From Marsupella aquatica (Eukaryota > Plantae > Marchantiophyta), in the NCBI GenBank assembly GCA_973895155.1, contig OZ316894.1, positions 7,960,234 to 8,024,233 of the forward strand: 64,000 bases of DNA, given 5' to 3'. The notes beneath the pieces were generated by a model. It did not search any database, had not been told where the DNA came from, and was given only the letters and a program-made list of their open reading frames with translations. Made by a program: the position numbers and the translations under genes. Every line of letters starts with the position of its first letter. The stretch's first letter is position 1. Shown here piece after piece: positions 80-31,188 of this stretch.

Positions 80-2957
80 CTAATCATCTCTTGTGTCCTC
101 AACACTTTCAACAACTCCTAAAGAGTCAAGTCCTATGATTTCCTCCTCTCCAACTCCTATCTCTGATATTGGTAGAATGGTCTCTTGAACATCAACATCT
201 AAATCCACCATGCCTTTGCCATCATCTTCCTCAATGTTGTCCACCAGGTTTAGAATTCTCCCTTTCAAGACACTGCTCTGGCGCTCATCAATTTCTACAG
301 CAACACAATGTCTTCCTTGTGCCAAAGAGGAAGACAATCATGTGCCTGACCCTGAACAAATATCTAGCACCCAGTCTCCAACCTGGCTAAAGTGGGTAAC
401 TTCCCAATCCAATAACACTCTTGGCTTCTGGTAAAAGTTCACCATCTTATTGTCCCCGTTGTATTTCAACTTATTGGTCACAGCTGGACACACAACCACA
501 TTATTTCGAGACTCATTAGTCTCAAAATTGAAATGCTCCAAAGACCGTTTCCCATCCTGACTATGAAAGCCAATGGTGAAACACTCAAAATTGTTGTTAA
601 GCCTTGCACCTCCTACATTCTTAACATTGTCTTTCACCCTACAAAAACCAAAACTTGCATTATGGATTTGTTTCAAAATCAACCATCATGAAATGATGAA
701 CACCAAAAAAACATATTCACCTTTTGAAATGTTTCTTACCAAATACAATTCTGGAAACCACCATTACACTCAGCTTTCAAGACAGTCTTGACAGCATCAT
801 ACTGACCGTCAATACTATGATGAATGATAATTCGCCAAAGATTTGCCTTGGTGACAACCTTGAAGGACTGAACCATCTTGGTCACCTCTTCCACACCCCA
901 TCCAACATTGTCTTTGTGAAGACAAGCAGTCATTCCAAACCCATAAGGAATATCTGCCAAAGCCAATGTGTAAGCTCATGATGGGATTACCTCGTGCAAC
1001 TGCTGAGCATCGTGTGTAAATATATCATAGTACACATCCCCAAACTGTGGATGCTCAAAAGCATTAGGATGAAGTTCACTTCCCTAGGTCTCTTGGCAAG
1101 ATTTCTTAATTGCCAACCAATTCTGTGCTTGTGCAATATGTGCATTGAACTTATCTGGGAAGGACTTCAACTTTTTGCTTTCTTCATTCTCTCCCTTCTT
1201 TTTCCGGGAGCTGCTGTCTTTCTGAGAAAAAAAAATTGGGTACATGAGATTCCTACATACTTAAGAATAAAACTGTAAAACAAATGCTCAGTCAATCTCA
1301 AATAAACTTACCCAAGTCTGGAAGACAGGAACAAAATTCTTCAGCACATTATCAGTGCAGTGTTCTGGGTACTTGGTTTTGAAATTCTTCCAACTCTCTT
1401 CGTGAAGACAGGTAAGAAATGCTTTTTGAACTTGCATTTGGAATTTGTGTCGTTGAAATTCCTGTCCCATCTCTTGAAGAGATAATTCCTTTGCCAAAAC
1501 CCTTTGTAGCACTGGACAGATCATGTCCGGATCTTTCAATGCTTGTATGTGTCTCCACTCAGTCAACTTCATATCCTCACATAGCATTTTAGCATCTCCA
1601 GACTTGGATATCTTTTTCTTGGTCTTATCTCCTTTCAGTCCTTTTATCTCACAATTCTCCCATCTGTCAAAGATTTGCCGTATGAAAGACCAAACAAGAT
1701 CCTTACGAAATGCCAATTGAAATAAATTATCATTGGCATTCAGAACCTCAGAATCTTTACGTACACCCCAGTCCTTTAGATTGATTTCAGTGGCACACTC
1801 CTTCTTGAAATCAACATTTGATGATGCTCCATTAGAACTCTACAAATCGCATGTGAATGTAATTCACTCTTTGGATGGTGCTCATTTGTTGACGAAATTC
1901 AGAGTCTATATTATGACTCCAAGCTAAGTTCCTTGCTTCCTGGATAGACAAGCCTGCAAAGATCCAAGATTGCACTCTCCTGTACGACTTGTTGTTGGGA
2001 AATTGTAATGCCAGGTCTGCCTTTGCACAAGCAGAATGATTTCCCCCCAATCACGTAATAGTGGTAATCATTCTTTTTTGAGAAATCAAAATCAGCTCGA
2101 GTTGGGCACTCCTTGGGATCAACCATTAGAACAAAAGGTGCTGCCAATGGACTAGCTCCAGCTGCTTTCATCCTTGTTGTCAACTGTGTAAGAAAGTAGG
2201 GTTGGATATGCCTTACTTGGTACACTGGCAACTCCAAAGATTTCTCTCGGACAGGTGGGTGAAGTTGTGCAATGTCAATTGTGATTGTCTCCTCTTGAAC
2301 TCCACACCTCATCAAAATCCCTTCCTAGTACACCACCCGAGCATCCATAGACATAGATTGAGCCTTCTACTCTAGATGAGTGGGGACTTTTTCCAACGTC
2401 TGCTTCTTGGATTTTGGTGGACTCGGACGAGATCCGGAAGGAGTAGAAGAAGGACCAGACTTTGGTGGACGGGTACTGGCACTCTTCTCTGCTGCTTTTG
2501 AAAGAATCTCCCTAGACTTTTGAATTGCACTCTTCAATGTGCTGGCATGATGTTCAAACACAAAACCAGCAATGAGCTCTGCAATCTCATCGTAGCTTTC
2601 TTCTGCAGACAGATTCTTCACCTTCTCAATAATCATCTCAATGTCATCAAGAAAGTAACAATGTGCAGCTCTTCCAGAAAATCTCTCACTGTCAACTGCA
2701 ATCAGTGTAGATGTCTCCGTTGTTGTGATAAGCATATTGAGGACATCAGCCCCTCGTCGAAAGACATCAATCCGGCCATAATTCACCCAACCAAGACCTC
2801 CAGAAGGCAAGGTCTTGTAGATGCACAACATCAAAAAAGGCTTCTTCCACGATTCTGTACCCAATGATATTGTCTAGGAAGAGTTTCCAAAATCTGTCAA
2901 AGGATGCTCAACGAAAATAGCGTCTAACACCTTCTCCTATGATTTTGGTTCAACCAT
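80..2957 (-). pseudogene. Intron-containing ParB/Srx-like domain + beta-class N6-adenine/N4-cytosine DNA methyltransferase, inactivated by stops and frameshifts
   Basis: Joined minus-strand frames give a ParB-like segment (VRHIQPYFLTQLTTRMKAAG..APFVLMVD..YYVIGG/NHSACAKADL..GLSIQEARNLAWSHN, ~2230-1900). Amino-MTase motifs follow in beta order: motif IV LALADIPYGF (~966-937), motif X NFYQKP (~440-425), motif I VLDICSGSGT then AQGRHCVAVEID (370-290). In-frame TGA at 340-338, several TAG stops, frameshifts near 2045 and 1835. GT donors near 1311 and 740. Confidence 0.85.
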
Positions 2958-3279
2958 TCTGACTTCCTGAAATCAAGTCCAACAATGCAAAGTTAGCTCT
3001 GTTTGTTTTTCAAGTTCAGTTGCAGAATTCAGGTTCATGATTTCATGAAGCAAGGTTCTTACCTTGATAGTGGAGTCGGAAGTTGAATTTGCAGCGCCTG
3101 TTGTTCCCGCTTAGAAGAGTGTCACTGGTATTTTTATCCCTGATTTTGGCTTAGCTTATCTCCTTCACCTCCCTGGCAGATGCCTAAGCTGATCGACCCC
3201 TCCCCACTTAATATCGTTTGCAATGTCCTCCCCAATTTGGACCTCGTCCCTTCGGCAATGGTCGATCCTCCCCAGGCCT

Positions 3280-3830
3280 TCGACTAAAACTCCCTCTCTC
3301 GGCCTTTGACTATTGCTCCCTCCCTCGCAGCGCCTCGACAATTTTCCTCCCCCCCGGCCTTAGCCAATTTCTTCCTCCCCCCGGCCTTCGCCAATTTCTT
3401 CCTCCCCTGGCGCTTCGACTATTTTCCTCCCCCTGGCCTCGACACTTTTTCCTCTCCCCAGCCTCCAAACGTTTTCCTCCCCCCGGCCTTGACAATTTTC
3501 TCCCCCCGGCCTCCACACGTTTTCCTCCCCCCGGCCTTGACACTTTTTCCTCCCCCCGGCCTCGACACTTTTTCCTCCCCCCGGCCTGCTCCTCGACACT
3601 ATTTCCTCCCCCAGGCCTTTGCCAATTTTTCCTCCCCTGGCCGGTGCTTCGAGTAATTCCCCTCCCTGAGGCCGGCGCTTCTTCCCCGCGCCCCCGGCTG
3701 CGCCTCGACAATTTTTCCTCCCCCCGGCCTTTGCCAATTTTGCATCCCTCCCCTGGCCTTCAAAAATTTCTCCTCCCTCCCATGAACTTTGCCAATTTCC
3801 TCTCCCCAGGCCTTCGACAATCCCTCCCCG
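3280..3830. repeat. C-rich minisatellite, ~27-30-bp unit (TTTTCCTCCCCCCGGCCTCGACAC-like), roughly 18-20 degenerate copies
   Basis: Directly visible reiteration of TTCCTCCCCCCGGCCT; explains the Pro- or Gly-rich spurious ORFs in several frames. Confidence 0.9.
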
Positions 3831-4479
3831 AAAACTCTCTCCTGAGCGCAAACTTGCACGACAGCTTTTGATCTTGCTGTCTCCTAACCAAATTTCTTCC
3901 ACTCCTTCCACGATTAATCCTCCATTCCACGACCGATCTGCGCCTCAACAGCCAGGAAATTACAGAGCTGCACCAGATGTTGGTCCGCCCCCGATTTTCA
4001 GTTCCAGTTTAGGGATTCAACCCAACTCCTATTCAGACCACACCAATCACTGAGGGAAGAGCTTTCCATAGCACCAAGCTTTAGCCCACCATATATAGCT
4101 CTTCGCCAAGCTTCCTTTCCGTTCGCGCTTTGCAGATGCACGCCCACACTCCAAGCACCTGACAGTCCAATTTGTCTCAAACTTAGCATTTTCTAATTTT
4201 TGGGGTCATGAATTCATGAAGCTTTCGCCACCTCCACTTCAGAAATCCAGGAAGGTCGTAACCCTTCATGAATTCATGAAAGGGAATCAAGTATCATTTT
4301 GAAAGAATCTAGTGAAAAGTCAAAATTTGGGCCAAAAATAACCAATACCATGGGTAATAGAAATACAAGAAAAACCAAGAAAACCCCTAAAAACAGGGGT
4401 CATCGAAAACATTTTTGGTTGCAATTGAATAGTCTCCCACTAGAAGAAAACAGGGCCCTTTATGACCAATCACCCAATG

Positions 4480-5400
4480 ACAGAGATGAATAAATGACCA
4501 AAAGTTTTAATGACACAAAAAGAATGACGGGGGAATGACTGTCCACAATGACCAATAGACTGAAATGACAAAATGTTAATTTTTTCGTCATTTTGTATAA
4601 TGTCTATAATGACTGATGCGACCAAAATGACCCAATTTCCCTAAATGGTCAATTTAGACACATGTCTTAAATGACACAATTAATAACAACAATGATAAAT
4701 CAGTGTTTAGCAACATTATAGTCACTCTGGACAATGACTGAAATGACCAAAAATCTATTTGCATCATTTTGGACAACGGTGATAAATGACAAAAAATGTA
4801 TTATCGTCATTTTAACCAACGGTGTTAAATGACAAAATTTAGGGTCAATCTGAAAATGAGAATATATCAGTGTTTACAACAACATATTGTCATTATGGAC
4901 TTCTGCCATAAATGACTAACTCTAGGGTCAATCTTGAAATTAGGACATATTAGTGTTTACAAGAACATACCGTCATTATGGACTTCTCTCATAAATGACA
5001 AAATTTAGGGTCAATCTGAAAATGAGAATATATCAGTGTTTACACAACATATTGTCATTATGGACTTCTGCCATAAATGACTAACTCTAGGGTCAATCTT
5101 GAAATTAGGACATATCAGTGTTTACAAGAACATACCGTCATTATGGACTTCTCTCATAAATGACTAACTCCACAGTCAATCTTGAAATTAGGATATATCG
5201 GTGTTTTCAACAACATACTGTCATTATGGACTTGTCGCATAAATGACTAAATATAGGGCAATCTAAAAATCAGGATATATCAATGTTTACAATAACATAC
5301 AGTCATTATGGACTTATTACATAAATGACTACTTATAGAGTCATTAAAGAACCCAAGAGATATGAAGATTAAAATACTCAATAGTCATTCCAGACACCTA
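4480..5400. repeat. CACTA left subterminal region: dense AATGAC/GTCATT motifs in both orientations, including an ~82-bp tandem array (~4825-5340, 6-7 copies)
   Basis: Unit TAAATGAC..TAGGGTCAATCT..AGTGTTTACAA..GTCATTATGGACTT is repeated. Typical location for TnpA-binding repeats. Confidence 0.88.
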
Positions 5401-5414
5401 TCATAATTGTAGAG

Positions 5415-8400
5415 TCATACACCTTTGGAGTGATTTTCCAGAAGTGTCATCATATATGGATGCGCGCATACTATCGTATCCATGGGGCAAATGAAACCTT
5501 TTTGTCTCTCCAAGAAGTAGGGCAATACCAATGGAAGGTTGTCATGCTTTGTTGTAATTGTGTCATGTTTGTGCCGGTGTTTGGACGGGGAATATTTTAA
5601 TTTGCAAATAAATGCATGCATACCATCACATCCAAAGGCAAATAAAAGTTGTTTTTTGGTTCTCCAAGAGGTAGTGCTGCCCCAATGGAATGGGCAGGGG
5701 AGTAATGCTTCTCAGTATGGTGTGGGTGCATTCTCAGTATGGTGTGGGTGCAGGTTTAGGGAAGAGGAATATTCCAACCTTGCAAGGAATCTAAAGCTAG
5801 CTCTCTTTGGAGGTACTAGGGCCTTTATTGGGTCATATGTGAGCAATGGCCCGTCATAAATGCCAATGACTAAAAGTAGGGTCATTAAAATTGTCATATG
5901 GAGAGTCATATCAGTCTAATGACTGGATTTGTGGTCATTTGAGGGGTCCCTTATGTAGTCATTAAGGAAAAGCACAAATGACCATTTTGGGGCTAGGGGC
6001 TTGAGGTGGGCCCTAGAGTGCCATGGGCCCCACATAGAGGTGAGAACCCCTCCACTAGGTGCGGGACACTATACTCATCATTGTCCAACCACTAGTTGCG
6101 ACATAAACACTTTGGGCACATGTTTTTGTGTTTCCTTAAGGCATGATGCACCTTTGGGGAAATCACTCCCAAGTCGTACGACTTTGGAGTGATTTGCCAA
6201 AAGTGCAACCATGGATGTATACCATCACATCCAAAGGCAAATAAAACCTGTTTTTTGGTTCTCCAAGAGGTAGTGCTGCACGAATGGAATGGGCAGGGGA
6301 GTCGTGCTTCTTAGCATGGTGTGGCTGCGGGATTAGGGTTTGGGAATATTCCAACCTTGCAAGGAATCTAAAGCTGGCTCTCTTTGGAGGTACTAGGGCC
6401 TTTATTGGGTCATATGTGAGCAATGGCCCGTCATAAATGCCAATTACTACAAGAAAGGTCATTAAAATGGTCACATTGGATGTCATATAAGTGGAATGAC
6501 CTGAATTATTGTCATTTGAGGGGTCCCTCATGCAGTCATTAAGGAAAAGCACAAATGACCATTTTGGGGCTAGGGGCTGGAGGTGCGCCCTAGAGTGCCA
6601 TGGGGCCCCACATAGAGGTGAGAACCCCTCCACGAGGTGCGGGACACTATACTCATCATTGTCCAACCACTAGTTGCGACATAAACACTTTGGACACATG
6701 TTTTTGTGTTTCCTTAAGGCATGATGCACCTTTGGGGAAATCACTCCCAAGTCATACGACTTTGGAGTGATTTTCCAAAAGTGTTGCCATGCATGCACAC
6801 CATCACATACAAAGGCAAATAAAAGTTGTTTTTGGGTTCTCCAAGAGGTAGTGCTGCCCAAATGGAATGGGCAGGGGAGTCATGCTTTTAGGGTATGGTG
6901 TGGGTGCAGATTTAGGGAAGAGGAATATTCCAACCTTGCAAGGAATCTAAAGCTGGCTCTCTTTGGAGATACTAGGGCCTTTATTGGGTCATATGTGAGC
7001 AATGGCCCGTCATAAATGCCAATGACTAAAAGTAGGGTCATTAAAATTGTCATATGGAGAGTCATATCAGTCTAATGACTGGATTTGTGGTCATTTGAGG
7101 GGTCCCTTATGTAGTCATTAAGGAAAAGCACAAATGACCATTTTGGGGCTAGGGGCTTGAGGTGGGCCCTAGAGTGCCATGGGCCCCACATAGAGGTGAG
7201 AACCCCTCCATTGCGTGCGGGACACTATACTCATCATTGTCCAACCACTAGTTGCGACATAAACACTTTGGACACAAGTTTTTGTGTTTCCTTAAGGCAT
7301 GATGCACCTTTGGGGAAATCACTCCCAAGTCGTACGACTTTGGAGTGATTTGCCAAAAGTGTTGCCATGCATGCACACCATCACATACAAAGGCAAATAA
7401 AAGTTGTTTTTGGGTTCTCCAAGAGGTGGTGCTGCACCAATGGAATGGGCAGGGGAGTCGTGCTTCCCTGTATGGTGTGGGTGCGGGTTTAGGGAAGAGG
7501 AATATTCCAACCTTGCAAGGAATCTAAAGCTGGCTCTCTTTGGAGGTACCAGGGCCTTTATTGGGTCATATGTGAGCAATGGACCGTCATAAATATCAAT
7601 GACTAAAAGCAGGGTCATTAAAACTGTCATATGGAAAGTCATATCAGTCTAATGACTGGATTTGTGGTCATTTGAGGGGTCCCTTATGCAGTCATTAAGG
7701 AAAAGCACAAATGACCAGTTTGGGGCTAGGGGCTGGAGGTGGGCCCTAGAGTGCCATGTGACCTCACATAGAGGTGAGAACCCCTCCACTGCGTGCGGGA
7801 CACTATACTCATCATTGTCCAACCACTAGTTGCAACATAAACACCTTGGACACATGTTTTTGCGTTTACTTAAGGCATGATGTACCTTTGGGGAAATCAC
7901 TCCCAAGTCGTATGACTTTGGAGTGATTTGCCAAAAGTGTTGCCATGCATGCACACCATCACATACAAAGGCAAATAAAAGTTGTTTTTGGGTTCTCCAA
8001 GAGGTGGTGCTGCACCAATGGAATGGGCAGGGGAGTCGTGCTTCCCTGTATGGTGTGGGTGCGGGTTTAGGGAAGAGGAATATTCCAACCTTGCAAGGAA
8101 TCTAAAGCGGGCTCTCTTTGGAGGTACCAGGGCCTTTATTGGGTCATATGTGAGCAATGGACCGTCATAAATATCAATGACTAAAAGCAGGGTCATTAAA
8201 ACTGTCATATGGAAAGTCATATCAGTCTAATGACTGGATTTGTGGTCATTTGAGGGGTCCCTTATGCAGTCATTAAGGAAAAGCACAAATGACCAGTTTG
8301 GGGCTAGGGGCTGGAGGTGGGCCCTAGAGTGCCATGTGACCCCACATAGAGGTGAGAACCCCTCCACTGCGTGCGGGACACTATACTCATCATTGTCCAA

Positions 8401-10580
8401 CCACTAGTTGCGACATAAACACCTTGGACACATGTTTTTGCGTTTACTTAAGGCATGATGCACCTTTGGGGAAATCACTCCCAAGTCGTATGACTTTGGA
8501 GTGATTTGCCAAAAGTGTCACCATGGATGCATACCACTATTCCAAACGCAAATGAAGCCCTTTTTTGTCTCTCCAAGAGGTAGCGCAACACCAATGGAAT
8601 GGGTGTGGTAGTGGTGCTTCCCTCTATGATGTGTCTGATGTTTAAAGGTATACGATTATTCCATTTTTGCAAGGAATGTAGAGCGGGCTCTCTCTGGCGG
8701 TGCTAGGACCTTCTTTGGGTCATTTTTTAACAGAGTCATGTCATAAGTGTCAATGACCACAAGTAGGGTCATTGAATTGGTCATATGGGATGTCATATAA
8801 TTCAAATGACTGGACTTGTTGTCATTTGAGGGGTCTCTAGTGCAGTCATTGAAGACAAGCATGAATGACCAATTTGGAGCTAAGGGCTGGAGGTGGGCCC
8901 TAGAGTGCCATGTGGCACCACATAGAGCTCGCAACCCCTCCACTAGGTGTCAAATACTATAATTACTATTCTCCAACCACTAGTTGCACCATTAGCAGTT
9001 TGGAGCCATATTTTTGTGTTTACTTAAGGGATGATATAATCTTGGGGAAATCACTCCCAAGTCGTACGACTTTGGAGTGATTTGCCAAAAGTGTCACCAT
9101 TGATGCATACCATCCTATCTAAAGGAAATGAAGCCATTTTTTTGGTCTCTGCAAGAAGTAGTGCAAGGCTGTTGTCGTTCCATGTAATTGTGTCATGTTT
9201 GTGCCGGTGTTTGGATGGGGAATATTCTATTTTGCAAATGAATAGTGATGGGGCACTCAAGAAGGTAGTGTAATCTTCATTGAGTCATTTCTGAAAAAAT
9301 TGGTGTCATAAATACCAATGACTACAAGTAGGGTCATTAAATCTGTCATATGGGCTGTCACATAAGTCAAATGACTGGATTTGTGGTCATTTGAGGGGTC
9401 CCTTGTGCAATCATTAAGCAGAAGCACAAATGACCAGTTTGGGGCTAGGGGCTGGAGGTGGGCCCTAGAGTGCCATGGGGCCCCACATAGAGGTGAGAAC
9501 CCCCTCCACTAGGTGCGGGACACTATACTCATCATCGTCCAACCACTAGTTGTGCCATGAACACTTTGGACACATGTTTTTGCATTTACTTAAGGCATGA
9601 TGCACCTTGGGGAAATCACTCCCAAGTCATACAACTTTGGAGTGATTTGCCAAAAGTGTCACCATGGATGCATACCACCGTATCCAAGCGCAAATGGAGC
9701 CATTTTTTGTCTCTCCAAGAAGTAGCGCAACACCAATGGAAGGTTGTCATCTTGTGATGTAATTGTGTCATGTTTGTGCCGGTGTTTGGATGGGGAATAC
9801 TCCATTTTGCATATGAATAGACTTAAGGCATTGTGAGTAGGTGTTGTAATCTTCATTGGGTCATTTTGGAGGAATAGTGTGTCATTAATGCCAAAGACTG
9901 CAGTGAGGGTCATTTTGGCAGTCCTTTTGGAAGTCATTTGTGCCAAATGACTCCATATGGGGTCATTATAGAGGTCCCTCATGGTGTCATTACGTACCAT
10001 CAGAAATGACCCTTTTGGGTCTAGGAGCTTAAGGTGGCCCTAGTGTGCCATGGGGCTCTACATGAAGGTGGCAACCTCTCCACAAGGTGCGGGGTACTAT
10101 ACCCACCGTACTATTCTCCAACCACTAGTTGCACCATGAGCACTTTGGAGCCATGTTTTTGCAATTACTTAAGGGATGATGCAACCTTGGGGAAATCACT
10201 CCCAAGTCATACAACTTTGGAGTGATTTGCCAAAAGTGTCACCATGCATGCATACCATCCTAAGGCATGCATACAAAAATTGTTTTTGTCTCTCCAAGAG
10301 GTATATAGTGCAATACTAGTGGAAGACTATGTCCTTCTATATAACTATGTCATGTTTGTGCCAATATTTGGATTTTGGATATATTCTATTAAATTCCAAA
10401 GGAATTGTAAAGGGGCACTCCGAGAGGTAGTATACTCTTCATTGGGTCATTTTCACATAATGTGTGTCATTAATGTCAATGACTACAATAAGGGTCATTT
10501 TGGTAGTCAGTTAGAGGTCATTTGGAGCAATTGACTGCATATGTGGTCATTAGAGAGGTCCCTCATGGTGTGTCATTAAT
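5415..10580. repeat. 578-bp tandem repeat array (~9 copies) inside the CACTA element
   Basis: AATCACTCCCAAGTC recurs near 6161, 6739, 7317, 7895, 8473, 9049, 9615 and 10194. Near-identical spurious ORFs are spaced 578 bp apart (7319/7897, 7404/7982). Central copies are almost identical; edge copies are diverged. Confidence 0.95.
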
Positions 10581-11159
10581 GGAAACACCTCAAATTAGGG
10601 TAATCTTGGTTGTCATACTAGAGGTCAGAAGTACCAAATGACTGGAAATGTGGTCTTTACAAAGGCTATTGGGGGGTTCTCTTTGGAGGTACAAGGGAGT
10701 TCATTGGGTCATTTGTGAATTAAATGGTGCTTCAATCTGAGGACTAAACGTGGGGTCACTCACGCTGTCATATTGGAAGCCATTAATGTTGGCATATTGG
10801 AGGTCATATAGTCATGGGAAGGCTCACTTATTAATGCTTTGGTGTAATGCTCTCAAAAACTCTTACACAACATAGCCTCATATGTAGTGGTCATGTAGCA
10901 TGTAAGGGACCCTATAATTGTGCTTGAGTCATGAATGAGGGTTTCTCTCAATTGAGTCAGGAGTGGAGAGCTATTAAATGCTAATATTTGGATGAGTATC
11001 ACTATCATATGGTGAGACAATAAGGTAGTCCAAAATGGTGTTCATGCATGCGGGTTATGGGTTTATATCGCGGGCATATATCGGACCTTTTATATCGCTA
11101 GCATCATTTTTTATATATAACATTGGTCCTTAACATTCTTGTTGGCACCTACACAAACA

Positions 11160-11350
11160 GCCATGACCTTATGGGGGGGGTCGTGACATTATGAGTTATT
11201 AACCTTGCCTTCCCTACTTAGGGCCTTATGGGGGCGTCCGGACCTTGTTATTAACCTCTATAGTTGGTATTTCCCTAGGGCCTTATGGGGGGGGGTTTAC
11301 ATTGTTATTAACCTAGTCTCAACTTCCCTAGGGCCTTATGGGGGGTCCAG
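11160..11350. repeat. ~55-60-bp degenerate tandem repeat (GGCCTTATGGGGGG..TTATTAACCT..TTCCCTA), ~4 copies
   Basis: CCTTATGGGGG visible near 11167, 11224, 11281 and 11334. Confidence 0.7.
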
Positions 11351-11918
11351 ACATGTGAGAGATATTGTCAGAATATAACCCTAATTAATGACCCACAATA
11401 TCCACCATCCCCATCCAACAGAATACCTTACCTTTACGGGGTTTAGGGGTCTAGCATTAGGTTTTTCCCGCTAAGTGTTCTTGCGTACCAACAGGAGCCC
11501 TTTTTCCTGAAAAAACATCGAGAGGGCAACGCTCGATGTGCTCATTTCTTGGCATGCCTTTGTGTGCACATTGCAAGGGCTTAGGGTTGCGCAGCGTTGT
11601 GCTCCATTCCACCAAGCTTCGACACCCTTCGAAGCGTTGGGCGAGGCATTGTTCGGGCAAGCATTGGGTGAGGCATTGTTTGAGTGAAGCGTTGGACGTG
11701 GCATTGTTTTAGTGACCATTTGCAAGGTTTAGAGGAGGAGCTCCGACCCGAAGCCATTCAGGCTACAATTGTTTTTGAGCTTGTTGCGCGCGGTCGGCGG
11801 AGCACCTCGGTAGGACTTGGGAGCTTCTTTGGAGGACCCTGCGCTTTGGAGGACATTCGGGCTTTGGAGTGCCCGATTGCAGGGTCAAGGCAATAGCTTC
11901 TTTACATTTGTCATTGTT

Positions 11919-12170
11919 GCGGGTGAGGAGCGGAGGATGAGCTGCAATCGGCGATAAGCTGCGGGTGAGGAGCGGAGGATGAGCTGCAATCGGCGATAAG
12001 CTGCGGGCGAGGAGCGGAGGACGACCTACAATCGGCGATAAGCTGCGGGCGAGGAGCGGAGGACGACCTACAATCGGCGATAAGCTGCGGGCGAGGAGCG
12101 GAGGACGACCTACAATCGGCGATAAGCTGCGGGTGAGGAGCGGAGGACGAGCTGCAAATCAGCGACGAGT
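11919..12170. repeat. 42-bp tandem repeat (GCGGGYGAGGAGCGGAGGAYGASCTRCAATCGGCGATAAGCT), ~6 copies
   Basis: Copies start at 11919, 11961, 12003, 12045, 12087 and 12129; a degenerate tail runs to ~12240. Confidence 0.93.
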
Positions 12171-15178: not shown

Positions 15179-15775
15179 TTGAGGCTGGATCGAACACAAA
15201 CTTGAGATAGAGCTTTTTGATGGTTTCACGTGGACTTAAACAATTTTCAGAGTGCTAAAACATGTGGACTATTTATATGCAGTTTGATGAACTCCTCATG
15301 TATACACACTCTACGACAGTGCATTGCGGATTGAGGCAATTAATTTTGAGAAATCAACTTTATTATCTTTTCCAGGGTAGGATTCTGATTTTCAAGCATG
15401 TACTTTGAGTGTGACTTTCCTCCATATTGATGTCTAAACTTCACTTGTAAATTTGTCACTGGTGTCACAAACGTTACTTATTCCAGACCTGTCTGCTCAC
15501 ATTCCTAATAGGCAAACAAATACTGGAAATGATGAAGGCACAGAGATTTACGTTCATAGTATCATTCTGATGACACTGTATGTGATGCTCTATTTGTATG
15601 CAAGGAGAAGGTGCCCTACTACAGTGGATTTGAGAAACTGGGCTCTGTGGGTTTGAGCAATTGGACTGTGGTTGGCATCGGTTGTACAACTGTGACGGTA
15701 GGCCCAATTTTGTATGCATGTCACTCTGATTCAGTTTGAAAATCATAGTTTGAATACAATTTCAATCAAGCTAGC

Positions 15776-18700
15776 ATGGCACAATTGCCACAGAATACGT
15801 TAGGTGTGGGTAGAACTCCAAAGTTGCCGCTCTTCCATCCAGCTAGAGTACAACATCGTGATGATGCTTTGTGGGTTCGAGAACAGAAGGCCTGCCACAA
15901 GAGTGGGGACCATAAGATGTACTGCCCTTGTGTGAACTGCAAAGGGAATTATAGGACTAATCGGAATACTGCTAGACTGCACCTTATTAAACATGGTCGG
16001 TACCCTGCATGTCGAGTGTGGGTGGGAGAGGGACAGGACTCTTCTGATGAAGAGTGGGGTGCTGACTACATGTCACAACATGGCCCTGAGGCATTGAGGG
16101 TAGCAAACCTTCAGCAGGCAACCTGTGCACAACAGCCAACTGTAGATGTTGAAGAACATTTATTTGTAGATGTTCCAGAGTATCCAACTGTGGATGTTCC
16201 AGAGTATCCAACTGTGGATGTTCAAGAACATCCAACTATAGATGTCGAAGAACATATCAGGGCTCTACTGGAAGAAACGTTGCTGAGAACCAGTGAAGAA
16301 TCCCCTGAGCATGAGCTAGATGATCAGGACCGTTTTGACTTGGATTTTGTACTTGGGGATGATGAGAGTGAAGGAGGTGCCCATCCTGTAAACCCCCTTG
16401 AAACCTCCAAAACTCCTGTGGAGACTGATCCTGCACAGTTATCTTTAGATGCAGCAATGCAACCTTTGTTCCCAGGCAGCAAAATAGATGTTGTGTCATT
16501 CATGTTGCTTCTGCTGAACATCTGTCATGGCCATGGATTCTCAAACAAAGGAGTGAATGCATTGTTGTCTTTGATGGGGGAGCATGGTATGCCTACAAAG
16601 CATAATCTGCCCAAGAACTTATATGCTGCAAAGCAGCTATTGAGAAAGCTTGGCTTGGATTATGAGAGAATCCCTGTCTGTGAGAAAGGTTGTATGCTCT
16701 TTAGGGGTGAGAATGCCAAGTTAGAAAACTGTTCAGTGTGTCAGCAGCCCAAGATGAAGAGAGTGGGGAATTCATTACAGGCAAGGAAGGTAGTGCGGTA
16801 TTTCCCTATAATTCCCAGGTTGAAGAGATTGTATGCCACTGCTGGTACATCTAAACTCATGACTTGGCATCATGAGAATAGAAGCACAGACAACATGGTT
16901 CGGCACGCAGCAGATTCAAAGGCTTGGAAGCATGTGGATACAAATATTGATCGGGAATTTGCAGCTGAACCAAGGAATGTGCGATTTGGGTTGGCACTTG
17001 ATGGGGTGAATCCCTTTGGGAATAATTCCACAGCTTGGTCTACCTGGCCAATACTGTTGTTGAATTACAATTTACCTCCTTGGCTTACCACCAAGAAGTT
17101 CTTTGTCATGCTAGCTATGCTGATTCCAGGACCTGATTCAGTAACAGAGGAACAGCTAGACATAATATTGGGCCCATTCTATGAGGAGTTGGAGCTGTTG
17201 TGGAAGAAAGGAGTGCCCTGCTTTGACAAATTGCCACGCCCAGGATTGTCTCAACACTTCAACCTTAGGGCTGTGCTATTGTGGACAATCAATGATTACC
17301 CTGCATATGGTTTAATATCTGGACAACAACACTTTGGATACAAAGGATGTGTCATCTGTGGGCCAGAATGTATGGCACGTGGTTCTAAGCACTTGCAGAA
17401 ATTAGAGTACAGTGGCCACCGTCGATGGTTAGCAACAAGGCATCTTTTTCGTAGACCAGATAGTGCACAATACTTTGATGGTGCAATTGAGAGTCGACCT
17501 GCACCGTGTAGAATGACAAGCTCTGATAGAAAGAAGTGGGGAGACGAGACAACAGAATATTTGAAGAAGGGAGGAACCAAGGTTGAGGATGAGAAATGCC
17601 CCATAAAGGTGCATGGAGTGAAGAGGGCTACTGGTCTGTACAAGTTGCCCTATTGGAATGTAAGACTCCATACTACTACAATGAATTTCTGCAATCTCTT
17701 CATATGACTTTGAAATATATTCTCTTCATATACTTCCTGTAGCCCAGATTTTGTAATTGTTGTATTCAATGCACTAATTTCTGAATTGTGTCCACTGCAC
17801 AAACTACTGCCCAGTGATGCCAAAAGTTGTATTCAATGCCCTAATTTCTGAATTGTGTGTCCACTGCAGAAACTACTCATTAACCATTGTCTAGATCCCA
17901 TGCACTGTGAGAAGAATCTTGCACACAACATTGTGCACACTATCATTGGGACCAAGGACACTCCTTCTGTGAGAGAAGACATGAAGCTCTTACAGGTGCG
18001 CCAACACCTATGGCTTGTACCCAATCCAGCTCCCAAGCGTAAGGATGACAAATTGTTGATGCCCCCAGCCCCATATTGCCTGAGCAAGAAGGAAAGAACA
18101 AGGTTCTTGGAGGTTTTATTGACCTTGAAAGGGCCCACTGGTTTTTCAAGTTCTTTGGCAAAGTGTGTTACAAAATCCAAGAAACTCTCTGGGTTGAAAT
18201 CACATGATTTCCACCAACTCATGCAACAGATTCTCCCTCTGGCAACAATGGGATTACTTGATGAAGGGGTTCGCTTGGCCATAGCTGGGGTGAGCAATAT
18301 CTATCGCCAGATCTGTACGAAGGTGTGGGACCCTTCAATGTATGAGAATTTGATGATGGATGTTGCATTCACTCTCTGCATTTTGGAAATCCATTTTCCA
18401 CCAAGCTTCTTTGATGTCATGACCCATTTAATGATTCACCTAGTGGAGGAATTAGACTTGTGTGGCCCAGTTACAGGCAGATGGATGTACCCAATAGAGA
18501 GGAACCTGAAGGTATTGAAGGGTTATGTACGAAACAAGGCACGTCCAGAGGCTTCTATGGCTGAAGGCTATGTATTAGATGAGTCTTTGGGATTTCTTTC
18601 TGAATACATGATTGATGCAAAGGGAGAGGGAAAACGAACCTGGGAGTTGGAGGAGGATGCTGGCGTTGCAGGCATTGTTTTGGAAGGGGCTGCAAAGGCG

Positions 18701-19769
18701 ATAACTTTGGATTGGTCTGAAATGATGGCCATGCATCATTATATATTAGAGAATGAAGAGACAGTGGCTCCATGGTATAGGTACATAAACCCTAGAAACT
18801 CTCCTATCCTTAGGCATATGGATCATAATTATGTTTCCCCATTGTGTTTGTATATTCATGGTGGATCGTGCACTAATGTCTTCAGTGTTGTTGTTGCCAT
18901 GCAGGATATATGATGCTACCAATGAGACTGTTACCAAACGAAGAGTGGATTTCCGGAAGGAGTGGATGAGGAAGCCTGCCAATCGAAGAAAACCAGTGGA
19001 ATTTCCCGTAGACTGCCAAGAATTGCCACCTTTCAGGGAATGGTTTCAAACATTAGTCAATACCCATAATTTTGAGAAAGAGTCTGAGCGGTCATTACTA
19101 TCTGCATACTCCACACCACCTAGTTTGAAGGCACGACTGTATAGGGCATGTAGAGCCTATGGGCACCATTGGAGGACTATTCCATCCTTGGGGTGTTTGA
19201 GTGATTGTGATTCTGGTGCTTTCAGCACTTTTGATTCTGGGATGGCTTCTACATTCACTGAGAAGCGAGTGGACAGGTCTGGTGCAACCATAGAAGAATC
19301 TGTACAGTATGTAGGGGCCTTGACAGATATCTTGGTACTGAATTATGGCAGCTTGAGGAAAGAGGTGATTCTTTTCAAAGGGAAATGGGCAGATCCATCA
19401 TGGACTCCTAAATCCTCTGCCAGTATGAGGTATACCAAGTCTGGTCTTTGGCAGGTGAATTTCCATAGAGAACTGGGTGTGTCCAAGAAAATGGATTACG
19501 TTTTCCCAAAGCAAGTGGAGCAGGTTTTCTTCCACCCCAATGAGAAGGGGATAGCATGGAGAACAATCCTCCACAAAGAATCCAGGTCCACAAGGGTGTT
19601 AGGTGATTACACAGACGTTGATTTCCATGCTACAATGGAAAACAATGCCAAATTACACATCGAATTGGCTAAGGCCTGTAGGTCCAGAGAAAATCCAGGA
19701 CCAAGTACTGGTCCCAAACGAGGCAGAGATGCAGAGGGATCTGCAAGAAAGGGCAGGCCTAAGCAGTGA
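15776..19769 (+). CDS. CACTA TnpD/Tnp2-type transposase (Transposase_21 and associated domains), 3 exons, ~1219 aa, apparently intact
   Basis: Exons 15776-17659, 17870-18780 and 18905-19769 with GT-AG introns total 3660 nt, in frame. Motifs: CPCVNC, RYFPIIPRLKRLY, FGLALDGVNPF, NLPPW, TINDYPAYG, LPYW/LDPMHCEKN, GLKSHDFH, WMYPIER, VFPKQVEQVFF. Confidence 0.95.
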
Positions 19770-19867
19770 ATAGGTTTTAGCTAGGTGTGTGAAGTCCATA
19801 GATGGACTACATGTATGGACTATTTATGAAATCAGACTAATGGTTTACCCATTTGTGCAGTTGGTGA

Positions 19868-22800
19868 ATGCAGCCTGTGAAAGGAAGATTGCAAGGGTTG
19901 TCACATTCTGTGAATCCTTATGAGGAGGCCCGAAATCGGAACATAGAGCATAATGTCAGAATTATGCGTGATCTAGGACTGGGGCCAGACTGCAAGCTGA
20001 TGTGTGTGTTGATATGTCTATTGCAAATTTGATTCAGTAGATGGAGTTGTCAGGTTCATGTTCTGTTTTCATATTCCAGATTGGTCTCATACTAGTATGG
20101 ATCCTGTACATAAGTACTAGTGTTATGGTGTTGTAGATTCATTTTGCATGTATGTTTGATCTGCATTGGTGTATGTTGATGATTGCTTTGTTCCTTAGAG
20201 GCCCAACCACACATGTACAACGAGAGAGAGGAAAGCCTGCTTTGGTGAAAGGTACTTCAACTGAAACATTGCCAAAGAGGAGGAGCTCTAGACTATCAGA
20301 AGTTACCAAGGTGAACATGGCAGAGTTTGGTGATGATGGCTATGGTTCTCCTTCTGAGTATGACACTGAGGATTCTGACATTGGAGGGTCAGAACCAGAG
20401 AGTGCACAACAGGTAATGCTTGAACTTCATCATCCTAATAGGAAGGGATCCTTGTCCCTTTTTCAAATTATATGTTGATATGCTTACGTTGTCCATGATG
20501 TAGGTACAGAAACAAAATCGTGGTCCTAAGAAGACTGGGCCTGGTGGAGGTGGGCTAGTGAGATGTTGGAAAGACCCAGACACTGGACTCTTATATGAAA
20601 GTGAGTGGATTGTACTGTTCTACTTTTCAGGTGTGTTTGGAAGTTGATATTCTACTTGGAAATGAAATTAATTGAAGTGCTTTGGTGTTGTGTGTTTGTT
20701 TAGTGGTTCCATCAGCATCTGAAGGCAGATCAGGTCAATCTGATGTACTACATTCCAGAGGATCTTCAGGTAATACACAATCTGCTCGTGTTGCATATGC
20801 AAGTACATTTGCTCAACTTTTCAATCATGTACATATTTTTTGATTGAATGCATGTGTGTGCATTGCAGGAGGGGCCTCTGAGATGCGCAGGGAACGAAGG
20901 CATGCTAAGAAGCAGTTTGATAATACTGCCAAACAACGAAGGGATTGCGGAGAGGTGCCCAAACACATTAAAGTGAGTATTGTACTTGTTTGTAGATTTA
21001 GACAAATCTGATCCTCTCTGTTGTTGTGTGTATAAAACCTGGACTCTGCATAAATTCCAGAGTTATGATCTGACATTGTCTGTGAAATGCAGATTTATGA
21101 CAATGATATTGATGATTCTGATGGCAACAAACAATACTGGCTGGAGGAACTTCGTGGCAACGTACTCAGAGTCTTTGATGTATCAAAGCCAAAATGGACT
21201 GATCATCCACAAGTTCATACAACCACAGTGTGGAATAACATGGCAGCTGAGTGGGAGTATGTGGGTGGGGAATTTATTAACACCAAATTCCAGAGTCATT
21301 GTCGTGGCATATTGAAGAGAGAGCGCCATAAAATGCATGTTTATTGGAAGAAAGTTTGCAATGAGGATCCAACCAAACTTGGGCCATCTGGTGTTGATCC
21401 AAAGAAATGGGCAGCTTTGGTATCTCATTTTACCAGTCCAGCATTGATATCTTTGAGTAAACAGATGACTGATAAAAGAGCACGAGTGCAAGATACCTCT
21501 CACTTTGGAAGGGGAGGGCATGCTGCAGCAGCAAAGAGAATGGTAAATTGTCTATCATTTTCACTATCAATTCTGTCTTGTTTGTGAATCTTGATGAAAA
21601 CAAACTCTGTGATTTCTCATTCATTGTGTGTTTGAACAGAAGCAGAAGAGAGGATCAAGCCCAGGTATATCTGACCTGAAAGAAAACCATGGTAGTCAGG
21701 GTTCATTGCCAAAGGTGACAATGAGCCCATCATTGGCAAGTGCAGAAGGTCAGACTGGTAGTTTTGTGGGAGCAAAGGTGAGCCCATCATTGGCAAGTGG
21801 GGAGGGTAAAAGTGCTAGCTTACTGGGGCAAGGAAACAGACATGGATCAGCTGTGAGTATTGTCATACCAATTTGATTTGTACATCATTCTCCATTTGAC
21901 AGAGCCAGTGTTGTGTCGTTTGTAAGTTTGACAGTGAGACTGTTGTGTTGGTTTGTGGTTCATTTACAGACCCCACATTCAAAAGAAGAGATCACTGCCA
22001 TTGGGGCTGTGAAATTGGATGTCGCTGAGTTGAAAGGCACTGTGAGGGAGTTGACAAACATGATGACTACATGGATGGCACATCACCCCAGTAATGCACA
22101 AGTTCCAACAGTTGTGCCTAGTCACAGTAAGTTGACTACAACTACCAAACAAGGTAGTAGAAAGCGATCTCTTACTTTTTCAGGCGATAATGAAGGTAAA
22201 ATTCTCTATCATGTATACACTGTCCATTCAATGTAATTATTGTGATGTGTATATGTCATTGCATGTTTATAATGTTCTTGCATGTTTTTAGTGTGATTAT
22301 ATGTTGCTGGTGTATACATGTTTGTTTATGCATTTCTTTTGTGTGTGTTTTATGACAGCATCTTTAGGGGAGCCTCCTGTGTCGCAGGGAAGACCAACTG
22401 ACACAGCTAACAGTACTCTAAAGCAAACTGAATTGGAAGTGAACCTTTTGCCATCTAAGTTGCCCAAAGAAGCCATTTCAGATGTCTTTCAGTTGCCAGA
22501 GGATAAGTCGACTCAGTTGACACCAGATGTAACCCCAGAATCATCTGAGTTGCCAAAAGAAACTCCCATTCCAAGTGAACAGGATGACACTCCATCAACT
22601 AGAAAGGGAAAGAAGAAAAGGAAGAAAGGATCCTCAGCAAATGCATCACCTGCACAGAAGAAACCAATGCAGTCTCCTAACCCCGTTGCAAAGGTAAATG
22701 TGTGTTTGATTTGAGTGTTCTTCTATCTTTCAATTTCTGTTTATTGCATTTTTAACAAAATGTGTTGTTCACAGTTTGCAAGAGGAGATTTGGTGAAGAT

Positions 22801-23035
22801 GAAGAGCGTTGTGGACAATTCCATGATAGTGGCAGAAGGTGAGGTGACAGGGCTGCCAGGAGAAGATAAGTTTCATTGTGCAGATTTTGAAAGCCCTTTC
22901 TTGCGAGTGCGTGTGATTGAAGTGTTTGTAGATGTGGCATTGCCATTTGCCAATTCAGGGGAGAACCAGTCTAAATTATCTGATGTGAAAGGGATGAATG
23001 CCCTATGGAACTCTAGATTGCTTAAGAAGCAATAG
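19868..23035 (+). CDS. CACTA TnpA/Ptta-like multi-exon gene (exon boundaries only partly resolved)
   Basis: N-terminal YEEARNRNIEHNVRIMRDLGL motif (19868-19985). Ptta-like WAALVSHFTS..KRARVQDTSHFGRGGH (21405-21525). C-terminal Tnp1-type VAEGEV..FH..VRVIEVFVDVALPF..ALWN (22774-23035). Multiple GT-AG introns; canonical position downstream of TnpD. Confidence 0.75.
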
Positions 23036-23379
23036 AAATAGCACTCTATCAAGAAACAATAGACATGATAGAATGACAACTCTGTTTTTCTATAAACATG
23101 CAGAGTGATTGGTATGTCAGGTTGTAACAATTGACAATCTAATATTATTGATGTCAATGTAATTTTGTTTCATAAATTTGCATTGAGTTCAATATTTACC
23201 GTGAGACTTATGAAGGTATCTTGTATGAATATCAATTGGATTTGTGATATATATCGAATGTTTCTTTAAGTTTTCATTTAGCAACTCTATTGAATGGCTT
23301 TGTAATATATGATTTTTGATTGACATCAAGTTTTATCTATCATGATCACTTAAATTTGAATTTCTCCAAATCATTGAAT

Positions 23380-24100
23380 ACTTCGTCTGAATGACTGGCT
23401 TGAATGACTAAATGACTGGCTAGAATGACTGATGTAATGGTCATTATTCACAACTATCTTTGTGACCAATATGACTCAACTCTGGTCATTAAAGACATAG
23501 ACTAAATGATTCAAAGAATGACATATACAATGACCTTTCTCATGGTCATTATAAACAAGTCCACTATGACTCACTTTATGTCATTCAAGACATGTCATTA
23601 ATGACTAATGTGTATCTTTACGTGTCTTCTCCCAATTGAACCACGTGTCTCAATATGACTTGTTTATACTGTAGTCATTTTGGACACGTCCAAAATGACC
23701 CAAATATATTGCCAAATGGTGAATCCTCTTTGAACCACGTGTCACTATTTGATTTGTTATATAATGTACGTCATTTTGGACAAGTCCAAAATGACCAATG
23801 TTATTAGTTTTTTTATTGCCACGTGTCGTTGTGTGATTGGGTACGGGGACCATCGACGGTCAACGGCAATTGACCGTCGATGGTGATTTGTGTCGTCATT
23901 TTGGACCGTTCAACATTTATGACCATATCATAAAAACGGTCATTTAGGATAGTATGAAATGACCACATGTTTTTAGCGTCATTTGTCCAAAAGGACCGTG
24001 ACCAAAATGTCCGTTGTGACGTGTCTGGAAAGACGAGAACAATTGCGTCATTGTTTTGTTAAAAAGACCTGATTAATAGTCATTGTTTTGGTCATAAAAT
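23380..24100. repeat. CACTA right subterminal region with AATGAC/GTCATT motifs and a perfect 15-bp hairpin (23849-23884)
   Basis: Many AATGAC/GTCATT copies; ACCATCGACGGTCAA-cggcaa-TTGACCGTCGATGGT. Confidence 0.85.
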
Positions 24101-24566
24101 ACATTGTTTTCTACTAGTGTCCAAAAACCTCAAAGAAAACATGGGGTAAAAATGACCAATGCATTACTGATACACTATCTTAAGAGTTTGGCATGAAAAC
24201 ATATGCTAAAAGTAAAAAATAAAATTATGAGAAGACTCACAATATTTCAGGAGAAGACTTCACAGGAATGAATTAACCAAGTCTGCAAGAACTCTAATGA
24301 GTATTAGAAACCTGAAAACATAAGTAAACCTGTGAGATTTGGAGAAGTAATAAACTATTTGTTCATGAAAGATTTCTTTCCTTGCCACTAATTCCTAATG
24401 AAGGGCGTGGCCCTTTTTCTTATTTTATTGCTAATTAAGTTTTTGAGTTATTTCCAAAATCTATAAAAGGGGCTTCGTATTCATGACTCTATCTCATTTC
24501 TATTTTTCAGTTTGAGTTCATTTGGTGTTCTAGGTGTTCCCTTGTGAGTTTTGTGCAATTTTTGAA

Positions 24567-26980
24567 ATGGCAGCCTCAGATTATGAGTCAGACGATTATT
24601 CGGATGGTATTTCGGATGATGTTTCCTTCCCGGATTGTCCTTGTCCTATTACTTCTCCAGATGCTCCTAGTAAAACCACTATTTTGGAGATGCTTCCCCC
24701 AACTCCAATGAGTAAGTTGAAAGGAAAGGCTCTAAGTGTACCAAATATTCAGCAAAAAGTATTTGGTCCTTGTCTTAGTGAGCACTCTGACTCTTCGGAC
24801 TCATCTGAGAGTACAAGTCCCCCTGGCCGTCAAGTATTATTGAATCCTTCTCAAAGGGGGGTTAACTTGGGTGTGCGTTCTGTAGGCCCTCAACATAGTG
24901 GAGAGCTGAAAAAGAGGACTCATGAATTCATGAAGGCCAGATCTGGAGATGTGCCAAAAATGCCCAGTGAAAGCCCAAAAGTGAATTTTTGTGCACTCCA
25001 GGAAAGTTGTGGTGTGCAACATGCAACAATGAAAGAGAGTGAGTATTCTCGTCCTACATCTTTCAGATTTCAAGAAGGAGTGAGAGCGGAAACAAGGAGG
25101 CCGCTTGGAACTGAGACTAATTCAAACAAGGAGAGGATCAATTTGAGAAGATCTCCAGGGAACTTTGATCGTTTGGCTGAGGTTGGAAGCGGATCTAAGT
25201 CGATATACAACAAGGGCAAGAAGAAGGTCTTTGAGGAGATTCCAAACAAGAGGCCAAGAGAGTCAACCGAAGGTGGTTTCTTTGGGAATTCAGATCAAAA
25301 TCGATCAAACTCACTCCTTTTGAGAGTGAAGGGAGAGCCATTGAGTCCTCAAGGGCCTGCTCGAGGGCGGGTGAGGAGGGGTTTGTCTGCATACCAACTT
25401 GATAAACTTGTGGATATATCTTCTTCAATCGAAGAATCTTCTTCTGAGAGTGATGGAGAGCTTGCAGAGAGAGTTATGATGGCTAATAAACGACCGTCAA
25501 ATCTCAGCTTGTGTGAAACAAAGATGACAGAGGAGGATATCAAGAAGACAAATCGTAAGTACTGTTGTCAACGTCATTGTCTCCTGAGTCTTTCACCAAA
25601 ACAAATTTGTGAAGCACGCTCCAAGTTTTTGAGGCAAATATCTCAGGATCGATCTTTATCTTTGCACTGGCTCGTCAAGCAAGACGGAAATGAAGCTCAG
25701 GGGAGGTCCAATGTCACATACATGATTGGACAAAGAGATGTGTGTAGGAAAGCTTTCAAGATGGTCTTTTGTGTAGGAAATGAGAGATTGAATAGGATCA
25801 AGAAGCTAGGCAATCAAGATCTTGCTTATCCTAGACCGGCTGGTCGACCTCCATCTGTGAGAACATTGGTATTGAGTTCTTGGTTGAAGTTTTTTTTGAG
25901 ACTTGTGTGGAGACTCTACCAAATAAAGATGTTTCACATTTGCCTGATAATTATTCCAAACTAGAAGTTTGGAAAATATATGATTCAAGCTATGTGATCA
26001 CTGATGAGTCATCCAAAATATCATATCGACAATTTTTGAAAGTATGGTCACAAGACTTTGGGCATGTGAAGATTCCTCCTGTGAATCGTTTTAGTGCTTG
26101 TGCGGACTGTGAAGAATTCAAAACAATTCGAGACAAAGGAGTCTCGGAAACTGAAAAACGTAAGTCATTTTCATTTTTGTTGTTTTGAACATGTCTTTGT
26201 ATTAGATTTGTCAGGAAATCAATTGAGTAATGGGTAAACATTAGGAATGAATTTCAAGTTAACAACTTTGCTCTACCATTTTTCGATTGATTGCAGGTAG
26301 AGGAGAAATAATGTTACAAAAACATCGAGAACAACAATCGAAAGAGCGGGAAAAACTAGCAAAGCATCAAAAGAAATGTTTCACAAACCCAGAAAAATAT
26401 TTGGGAGTTGTGATTGATGGAATGGATCAAAAAAAGACTAGATTACCCCATTGGCCACGTCCTCCAAAATCCGTTGATGAGTCCTGTTTAATCCAAATGC
26501 ATGTGGTTGGTTGTCTTCTTTTCCACGGAGCACTATTTTCTAGGGTGTTCCTTAATTATCCAGTTCTCCATAATGATGGAAATCTTACCATTACTATTTT
26601 ACAAAGAGTATTCCTAGAATATCAAGAGAAGTATGGGGCCTTCCACCAGTTTTTTACCTTCAGCTTGACAATACAAGTAGGGAAAACAAAAACAATTTAC
26701 TTCACAATATCTTCACATGCTGGTACAAAAAAAGGTATTTCGAAAAATCAAACTTGGATTCCTCTTAGTTGGACACACCCATGATCAAATAGATCAAATG
26801 TTTAGTAGGTTCTCAAAAAGGCTTGGAAGATTTAAGGCCTTTACCTATGATAGTTTATGTAAGATTATTCAAGAATCTTACCAACCCCAACCTGAAATTA
26901 CCCTTTTAAATGAGACATATGATTTTTGAAAATTTTCTTTCTCAGAGCCTGCTTTGATCAGAGAAAGGATACAAAATGTT
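24567..26980 (+). pseudogene. Sola1-like DDD transposase, frameshifted and 3'-truncated
   Basis: CCQRHC..YMIGQRDVCRKAFKMVF; FSACADCEEF; VVIDGMDQKKTRLPH; (frame-corrected) LPPVFYLQLDNTSRENKN; LGFLLVGHTHDQIDQMFSRFS. Frameshifts at the poly-T near 25890 and near 26640 and 26705; intron ~26160-26297; stop at 26929. Confidence 0.75.
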
Positions 26981-30908: not shown

Positions 30909-31188
30909 ACCCTGGGTTAAATCAACACCGCATTAATGCGCTCCAAGTTTAGCGGCACACCGTACGCTGCCCGTCACGAAATCCAATGCCGCCTGCCCGT
31001 TCCCCGACGCGGCCTAGGTTTATGTTCTACCATTTCTCCTTTGACTGCCTAAACTGTGTTTCTGTCCGTCGTCCGTCCGTTTTGAAATCGGGCGGGAGCG
31101 CGAACCGACTCCCCGACCCTGCCAACGCTACCCTCCCCTGCCCTGTCTCGACAGTCGACTGCTGTCGAACCCTGCGATCCCACTCAAG
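30909..31188 (+). repeat. MULE left terminal inverted repeat
   Basis: Reverse complement of 41738-42017; the ORF track shows the same spurious peptide MPPARSPTRPRF.. on opposite strands. Confidence 0.96.

Follow-up and report, generated by a model that had tools for sequence, protein, structure and literature searches.

Introduction

The described system closest to the one reported here is Sola1-1_Ec32, a transposon of the brown alga Ectocarpus (PMC12477816). On the strand opposite to its transposase, this element carries a gene for a protein combining a ParB-like domain with an N4C/N6A methyltransferase, for which self-modification was proposed. Its termini are AACCG-CGGTT, its 4-bp target site duplication (TSD) is biased to A at the end, and its best blastp match is Sola1-1_PPa_tp. 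The design of a transposon with a ParB-methylase is already in print for this alga. Here we describe a pair of genes, one for a methylase and one for a transposase, in a 64,000-nucleotide stretch of the liverwort Marsupella aquatica (assembly GCA_973895155.1, contig OZ316894.1, positions 7,960,234 to 8,024,233), hereafter called the window. We favour, with some reserve, the reading that the window holds the dead copy, interrupted by a CACTA element, of a multi-copy cut-and-paste transposon of Sola1-like type, whose ParB-like/beta-class methylase likely marks its own element, probably on adenine.

Related combinations occur elsewhere. The Plavaka (EnSpm-like) elements PAG2 and PAG3 of Bostrychia have an accessory ParB-like domain and an N6-adenine methylase, with tandem inverted-repeat arrays beside the ParB gene, and self-binding was proposed for them (bioRxiv 10.1101/2025.02.11.637652). 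Unlike the family of the window, they belong to another superfamily, and their ParB domain is fused to a 2-oxoglutarate (2OG) oxygenase and their methylase to a SET domain, in separate genes. The ParB-methylase fusions of phage ParB-terminase loci (PMC4738411) also join a ParB-type domain to an amino-methylase, as do eukaryotic clades that descend from them. We obtained a match to PHROG 67 (E 2e-17), and the Atlas gave leads (0.87-0.88) to viral clusters with ParB_N + N6_N4_Mtase. In contrast to these phage fusions, the gene described here is spliced, nuclear and located within terminal inverted repeats (TIRs), and it has a long helical linker and a DxPY motif. The ParB-helix-turn-helix family of chlorophytes and chytrids is of group 2 (M.EcoKI/M.TaqI-like) and not of the beta class (PMC4738411).

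Bacterial-type beta-class amino-methylases are known in eukaryotes from Marchantia DN4MT1 and from bdelloid N4CMT (PDB 8s9n; fold Z 19.3 in our comparison), with which the window methylase shares this character. DN4MT1a/b are a tandem pair of host genes with the motif TSPPY and write N4-methylcytosine (4mC; 10.1101/2021.02.12.428880), whereas in the window family motif IV is D-x-P-Y, and the methylase has a ParB-like domain and is transposon cargo. No link to DN4MT1 was found when motif IV was compared over 151 family proteins, and the predicted window methylase is, by this motif, not of the DN4MT1 type. A search of the literature outside Repbase reports and subscription journals returned no land-plant description of a ParB-methylase transposon. 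What is new here is comparative evidence stronger than the single printed paragraph on one algal family: Sola1-1_Ec32 is one family, and the passages that describe it give no analysis of co-divergence, selection or arrays. Few writers are known for enzymatic N6-methyladenine (6mA) or 4mC in plant DNA. If our reading is correct, self-marking would give the transposon a means of countering silencing or of timing that differs from the known plant anti-silencing proteins, and such elements may be a way in which bacterial-type methylases are spread among eukaryotes.

Linkage of the methylase and transposase genes

After removal of the CACTA element in silico, the methylase and transposase genes of the window stand head-to-head, with ~1.9 kb between their ATG codons, in agreement with the original prediction, which had placed the methylase about 2 kb from a DDD transposase gene. 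Relatives were sought in metagenome contigs with a nucleotide pattern built on the transposase motif. This gave 83 stretches, 80 of which were returned as loci, and linkage was counted where 3.5 kb or more of upstream sequence was present, which was so at 19 of them; the weak matches at L133 and L146 were left out of the counts. A methylase gene was found head-to-head with the transposase in 13 of these 19 loci, which form 11 clusters at 90% nucleotide identity, with a likeness between clusters of mostly 65-77%. One further head-to-head locus was L152. The relative nearest to the window, L151, comes from another accession series (63% to P0158) and has the same exon layout and the same TCATGA-type palindromes. 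One of the 19 loci, L116, has a same-strand methylase; it was considered as a counter-example and rejected, as the join is nested or chimeric and a left terminus abuts a cut transposase.

The likeness between relatives ends at AACAC... on the left and at ...[AG]TGTT on the right, defining TIRs of the form AACAC...GTGTT. Two-gene units with both ends were found in L110 (7.6 kb, with a perfect TIR of 33 bp), L122 and L149, while L093 is a nearly complete unit of 8.6 kb whose right end is cut by the contig. The window terminus ...ACCCATGTT (...CATGTT at 27565) fits the right terminus of these relatives. A check proposed beforehand was for recurrent divergent linkage inside common TIRs and 4-bp TSDs: linkage and TIRs were found, and the TSD, AACA, was seen in L122 alone among the three complete elements. 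A 6-bp TSD for L122 was rejected, as other flanks gave it no support.

The pairwise distances of the two genes were correlated over 10 families (Mantel r 0.63, p 0.003). In the exon that carries the DIPY motif, the nonsynonymous distance (dN) was 0.11-0.43 with the synonymous distance (dS) saturated or 3.1, in 10 pairs out of 10, and DIPY was intact in all 9 loci in which motif IV could be located. By these codon comparisons the methylase is under purifying selection. Low dN with saturated dS, linkage and co-divergence together indicate that it is a long-kept, selected cargo. We therefore regard it as very likely that methylase and transposase are cargo of one mobile unit, a reading well supported by the recurrent head-to-head linkage, the common TIRs, the co-divergence and the multi-copy state. 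None of the three outcomes named beforehand as contrary to it (an unlinked single-copy host gene, a linkage unique to this locus, unsupported folds) was found.

Compared with Sola1-1_Ec32, the family shares the AAC...GTT termini (AACAC...GTGTT in the relatives and ...CATGTT in the window, against AACCG-CGGTT) and the position of the ParB-like/amino-methylase gene, opposite to the transposase strand in the window and in the 13 linked loci. The TSD of L122 fits the preference for a final A in the alga and not the AWWT of insect Sola1. The units are smaller, 7.6-8.6 kb with TIR cores of ~30-35 bp, against 21.5 kb with imperfect TIRs of 282 bp. Our elements belong to a plant lineage and Sola1-1_Ec32 to a brown alga, and the likeness is one of description and not of protein alignment.

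The methylase and its family

The motifs of the window methylase, DIPY, QKP (430-422), DICSGSGT (364-341) and VEID, follow the beta-class order IV-X-I-II. Exon 3, with its stop read through, matches Pfam N6_N4_Mtase with 31.5 bits (cut-off 26.7) and aligns at 63% to P0001 of the liverwort Calypogeia fissa, the nearest named protein; this match on its own makes a liverwort or other bryophyte the likely host. The Pfam search did not detect the ParB-like domain in the methylase. However, the ParB and linker region of the long exon aligns at 61-72% to P0039 (tblastn), and we accept a ParB-like domain in the window because the folds of homologs show ParB and the window region aligns to those homologs. 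The prediction of an intron-containing gene joining a ParB/Srx-like domain to a beta-class methyltransferase thus stands on exons, motif order, Pfam and homolog folds; of the profile and structure checks proposed with it, Pfam confirmed the methylase half and missed ParB, which homolog folds supplied. An additional exon upstream of the long exon is possible.

The fold comparisons were made with homologs. The model of the full-length homolog P0031 matched M.BceJIV with Z 22.6 (root-mean-square deviation, rmsd, 3.8 over 215 aligned residues), CcrM with Z 22.0, N4CMT with Z 19.3 and PvuII with Z 18.6. Its N-terminus matched the ParB/Srx protein PadC with Z 8.4 (rmsd 3.0, 98 aligned). When a model of the L122 domain (pLDDT 89.5) was submitted to Foldseek, the top six matches were ParB/Noc proteins (E 7e-5 to 7e-4), and KorB was among the fold matches of the ParB-like domain.

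A phmmer search with the methylase gave 410 clusters at E <=0.001. We looked up 30 proteins, 24 of them among the methylase hits and 6 on the transposase side or counted apart. The methylase hits with a named organism were from Chara braunii (4), Riccia sorocarpa (2), Adiantum nelumboides (2) and Ginkgo biloba (1), so that homologs extend over Chara, liverworts (n = 2), a fern and Ginkgo. The element had been suggested as a vehicle for spreading such enzymes in bryophytes; with homologs in Chara, Adiantum and Ginkgo, the family is not confined to that group. The Chara protein P0005 (GBG86584.1) is a gene model with two tandem ParB-methylase units, which may be neighbouring elements fused into one model.

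In the 151 proteins compared, motif IV was nearly always D-initial, with DIPY, DVPY, DFPY and DAPY dominating; DPPY occurred in 3 and SPPY in none. Motifs X and I were kept across the family, and DLPY, DFPY and DVPY occur in viral methylases as well. Viral scans gave no relative of the transposase; those with methylase patterns returned distant phage-type enzymes alone, 69 of 97 with DPPY, as selected by those patterns. The 440-kb contig L003, which of all viral sequences matched the family profile best, had at least 4 clustered open reading frames (ORFs) for beta-class methylases. The literature search, with the same scope as above, found no DIPY/DLPY enzymes. The methylase of this family would quite probably be active as an enzyme. 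The usual rule favours 6mA because motif IV is D-initial and SPPY is absent; D-motif 4mC enzymes exist. We take the mark to be probably 6mA, and 4mC to be unlikely.

Palindrome arrays between the genes

The palindrome TCATGAWWTCATGA has 4 matches in the window against 0 in 100 shuffles. Which spaced palindrome lies between the genes depends on the element: it is TCGATRC-N3/4-GYATCGA, with at most 14 copies, or a variant with CCGATGCA, while the window and L151 have TCATGAWWTCATGA. All 9 elements compared had a greater palindrome density and a greater observed/expected (o/e) ratio of CpG in the intergenic space than in the methylase or the transposase gene. Of all 4-mers, TCGA showed the strongest enrichment in this space, though its excess was weak in L110 (1.2x) and in the window (1.6x). 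In 6 of the 10 relatives examined, the array has a short first exon on its far side and so falls inside the first intron of the methylase gene. A conserved GTCCGTACA was also noted ~35-70 nt from the donor of this short exon, beside the array, in L093, L100, L101, L122, L130, L145, L149 and L156.

The copy in the window and its siblings

The features of the copy are collected in Table 1. That it is dead, as originally predicted, was confirmed by lesions in both genes. The methylase has 7 stops and 2 frameshifts in total (4 of the stops and both frameshifts in the long exon). The transposase has 3 frameshifts, 1 stop and a loss of ~340 C-terminal residues, which are present in homologs of 57-87% identity. 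Its pieces match DUF7869 (E 1e-25) and carry the triad motifs IDGMDQ, QLDN and GHTHDQID, which we take as a mark of Sola1; on these motifs the family likely belongs to Sola1. The original span of 80 to 26,980 included both genes, but not the ends: the element reaches ~27565 on the right, and its left end lies beyond the edge of the window. Self-comparison of the CACTA-free sequence revealed no TIR pair inside the window. The possibility that the transposase alone forms a separate 3.5-kb element from near 4349 was rejected, as it has no TIR pair and depth is continuous there.

Table 1. Coordinates of the two-gene element and of the element inserted in it (positions in the window)
Feature	Position	Strand	Details
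Methylase exon 3	80..638	-	motifs X, I, II (QKP, DICSGSGT, VEID); premature TGA 340-338; acidic tail
Methylase intron 2	639..739	-	101 nt, GT-AG, phase 2
Methylase exon 2	740..1221	-	motif IV DIPY (954-943); premature stops, n=2
Methylase intron 1	1222..1311	-	90 nt, GT-AG
Methylase long exon	1312..2957	-	N-terminal domain 2873-2514; ParB/Srx-like domain ~2315-1838 (GGNHS); helical linker
Palindromes and C-rich repeats	3035..4279	.	candidate binding sites; TCATGAWWTCATGA at 3035, 4206, 4266 (fourth at 24920); C-rich tandem repeats 3212-3900
Left CACTA TSD copy	4435..4437	+	TCC
CACTA/EnSpm insert	4438..24119	+	19,682 bp; PHD-finger ORF; Transposase_21/DUF4218/DUF4216 ORFs; tandem arrays
Right CACTA TSD copy	24120..24122	+	TCC
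Transposase exon 1	24567..26159	+	low-complexity N-terminus, Cys-rich region; frameshift near 25890
Transposase intron	26160..26296	+	137 nt, GT-AG
Transposase exon 2	26297..26977	+	DDD core (IDGMDQ, QLDN, GHTHDQID); 2 frameshifts, 1 stop; then C-terminal deletion
Subterminal 3' region with the inferred right end	26978..27565	+	...ACCCATGTT; depth step; terminus like relatives' ...[AG]TGTT

The insert has a Transposase_21 match (E 1e-65), CACTA termini at 4438 and 24119 and a 3-bp TSD, TCC on both sides as first noted. It is a later arrival between the two genes, outside the module. It carries upstream of its own transposase an ORF (14507-15178) with several NSD-like PHD fingers, a chromatin-reader cargo, and long subterminal tandem arrays (4500-10700) with units of ~580 nt that contain an imperfect palindrome.

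Part of the methylase region was present in six sequencing runs from three organisms, and no RNA run was among those listed. In run X1, which may itself be the source, and so is not independent, a contig of 3,457 nt at depth 20 equals the right flank without a difference. Depth over the transposase region in this run was ~120-190 and fell to 20, the level of the unique flank, at 27562/27563, three bases before the inferred terminus. The same step, from 2071 to 154, was seen in run X4 of another study. The methylase region in X1 had a depth similar to that of the transposase, still high at position 1. Although contig depth is not copy number, the depth ratio suggests several near-identical copies of the window element. 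At 5 of the 7 methylase stops the majority letters restore an open frame (the remaining 2 were not among the positions listed), and they do so at both methylase frameshifts and all 4 transposase breaks. Position 27007 was covered by one contig alone, at depth 179, and another contig has other letters before 26978; we infer that siblings retain the transposase C-terminus and that the window copy alone has lost it. A second subfamily, ~80% similar and more abundant, was also detected in X1 at 1307-1812 and 25608, with a depth of ~540-620 over both genes.

Possible roles of the methylase

We slightly favour a self-targeting mechanism through the palindrome arrays. In this model the spaced palindromes would serve the ParB-like domain as parS sites serve ParB, and loading on the array would confine the methylase to its own element. 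The element would then receive an amino-methyl mark, probably 6mA, which would likely keep the shared promoter and the ends usable against host 5-methylcytosine (5mC) silencing. More speculatively, and with considerable doubt, an old Sola1 lineage might have carried a bacterial partition-type system through plant evolution, with a ParB-like clamp on parS-like palindromes and a 6mA writer acting along its own transposon, so that land plants would have a locus-specific adenine mark opposed to 5mC silencing; the near-identical siblings in this genome would perhaps still be active.

Several observations weigh against this reading. Twelve of the 13 head-to-head loci come from one accession series, probably one host lineage. 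Five of the 19 long-flank loci have no methylase; they represent three sites of one related family, two of which are degraded and carry stops or frameshifts. At L113 (1-2982), from a sister transposase clade, the methylase lies tail-to-tail, ~480 bp from the transposase stop, and orientation is therefore not fixed. Only one complete element in three has a TSD, the trees of both genes have few supported branches, the left end of the window element is not visible, and among the contigs displayed none spans the CACTA-free junction. Four of the five resolved methylase stops are C-to-T changes, the copy having decayed largely in this way despite its cargo, and the CpG excess may simply come from selection on the palindromes. 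DIPY departs from the canonical (D/N/S)PP(Y/F/W) and from DPPY, and the 4mC enzymes N4CMT and PvuII are close in fold score. ParB CTPase clamps use a GxRRxxA arginine patch, and at this position the family has GG[NSG]H[ST]xxA; CTP-driven sliding is uncertain because this patch is altered.

The methylase may instead time transposition, hemimethylated palindromes after replication switching on transposase expression or the use of the ends. Dam regulates IS10/Tn10 through hemimethylation, and cut-and-paste elements multiply by moving after replication, the way in which such an element would gain copies. The candidate sites are palindromic and TCGA is enriched between the genes, but this excess derives from the arrays and is weak in L110 and in the window, where the palindrome is different, and the arrays lie between the genes and were not shown at the TIRs. 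We consider this explanation improbable.

A little less probable still is a KorB-like autoregulator or repressor, which would bind the arrays that lie within the intron of its gene, damping both genes, the methylase domain mainly binding or flipping DNA or making repressive 4mC. The position of the arrays, which separate the short first exon from the long one, the KorB fold match and the non-canonical DIPY are consistent with it. Against it, motif IV is retained in every locus where it was located, in an exon kept by purifying selection; motifs X and I hardly vary over the family, and viral methylases also have DLPY, DFPY or DVPY. That the methylase belongs to the host or to a separate element and neighbours the transposase by chance, or is a Pack-type capture without transposon function, is very unlikely and already largely refuted: the unseen left end and junction, one related transposase family without methylase, and the Chara, Riccia, Adiantum and Ginkgo homologs, known as proteins without genomic setting, would allow it, but the recurrent orientation, common TIRs, co-divergence and purifying selection, the like depth over both genes and the same pairing in a brown alga speak against it. 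The self-marking reading is directly testable with the compact relatives that have open reading frames (L110, L122, L149), the candidate sites and a multi-copy family.

Other features of the window

The transposons of the window are inserted within a cluster of alpha/beta-hydrolase, NB-ARC and leucine-rich-repeat (LRR) ORFs (27877-28413, 43997-47393, 52612-56878 and 60595-61533), which resembles bryophyte hydrolase-NLR (nucleotide-binding, leucine-rich-repeat) genes. Within it, 27911-29510 is a 71-76% paralog of 60977-62684. An 11.1-kb Mutator-like element at 30908-42018 has TIRs of 281 bp (98%), TACGGGC on both flanks and fragments of a SWIM-finger ORF.

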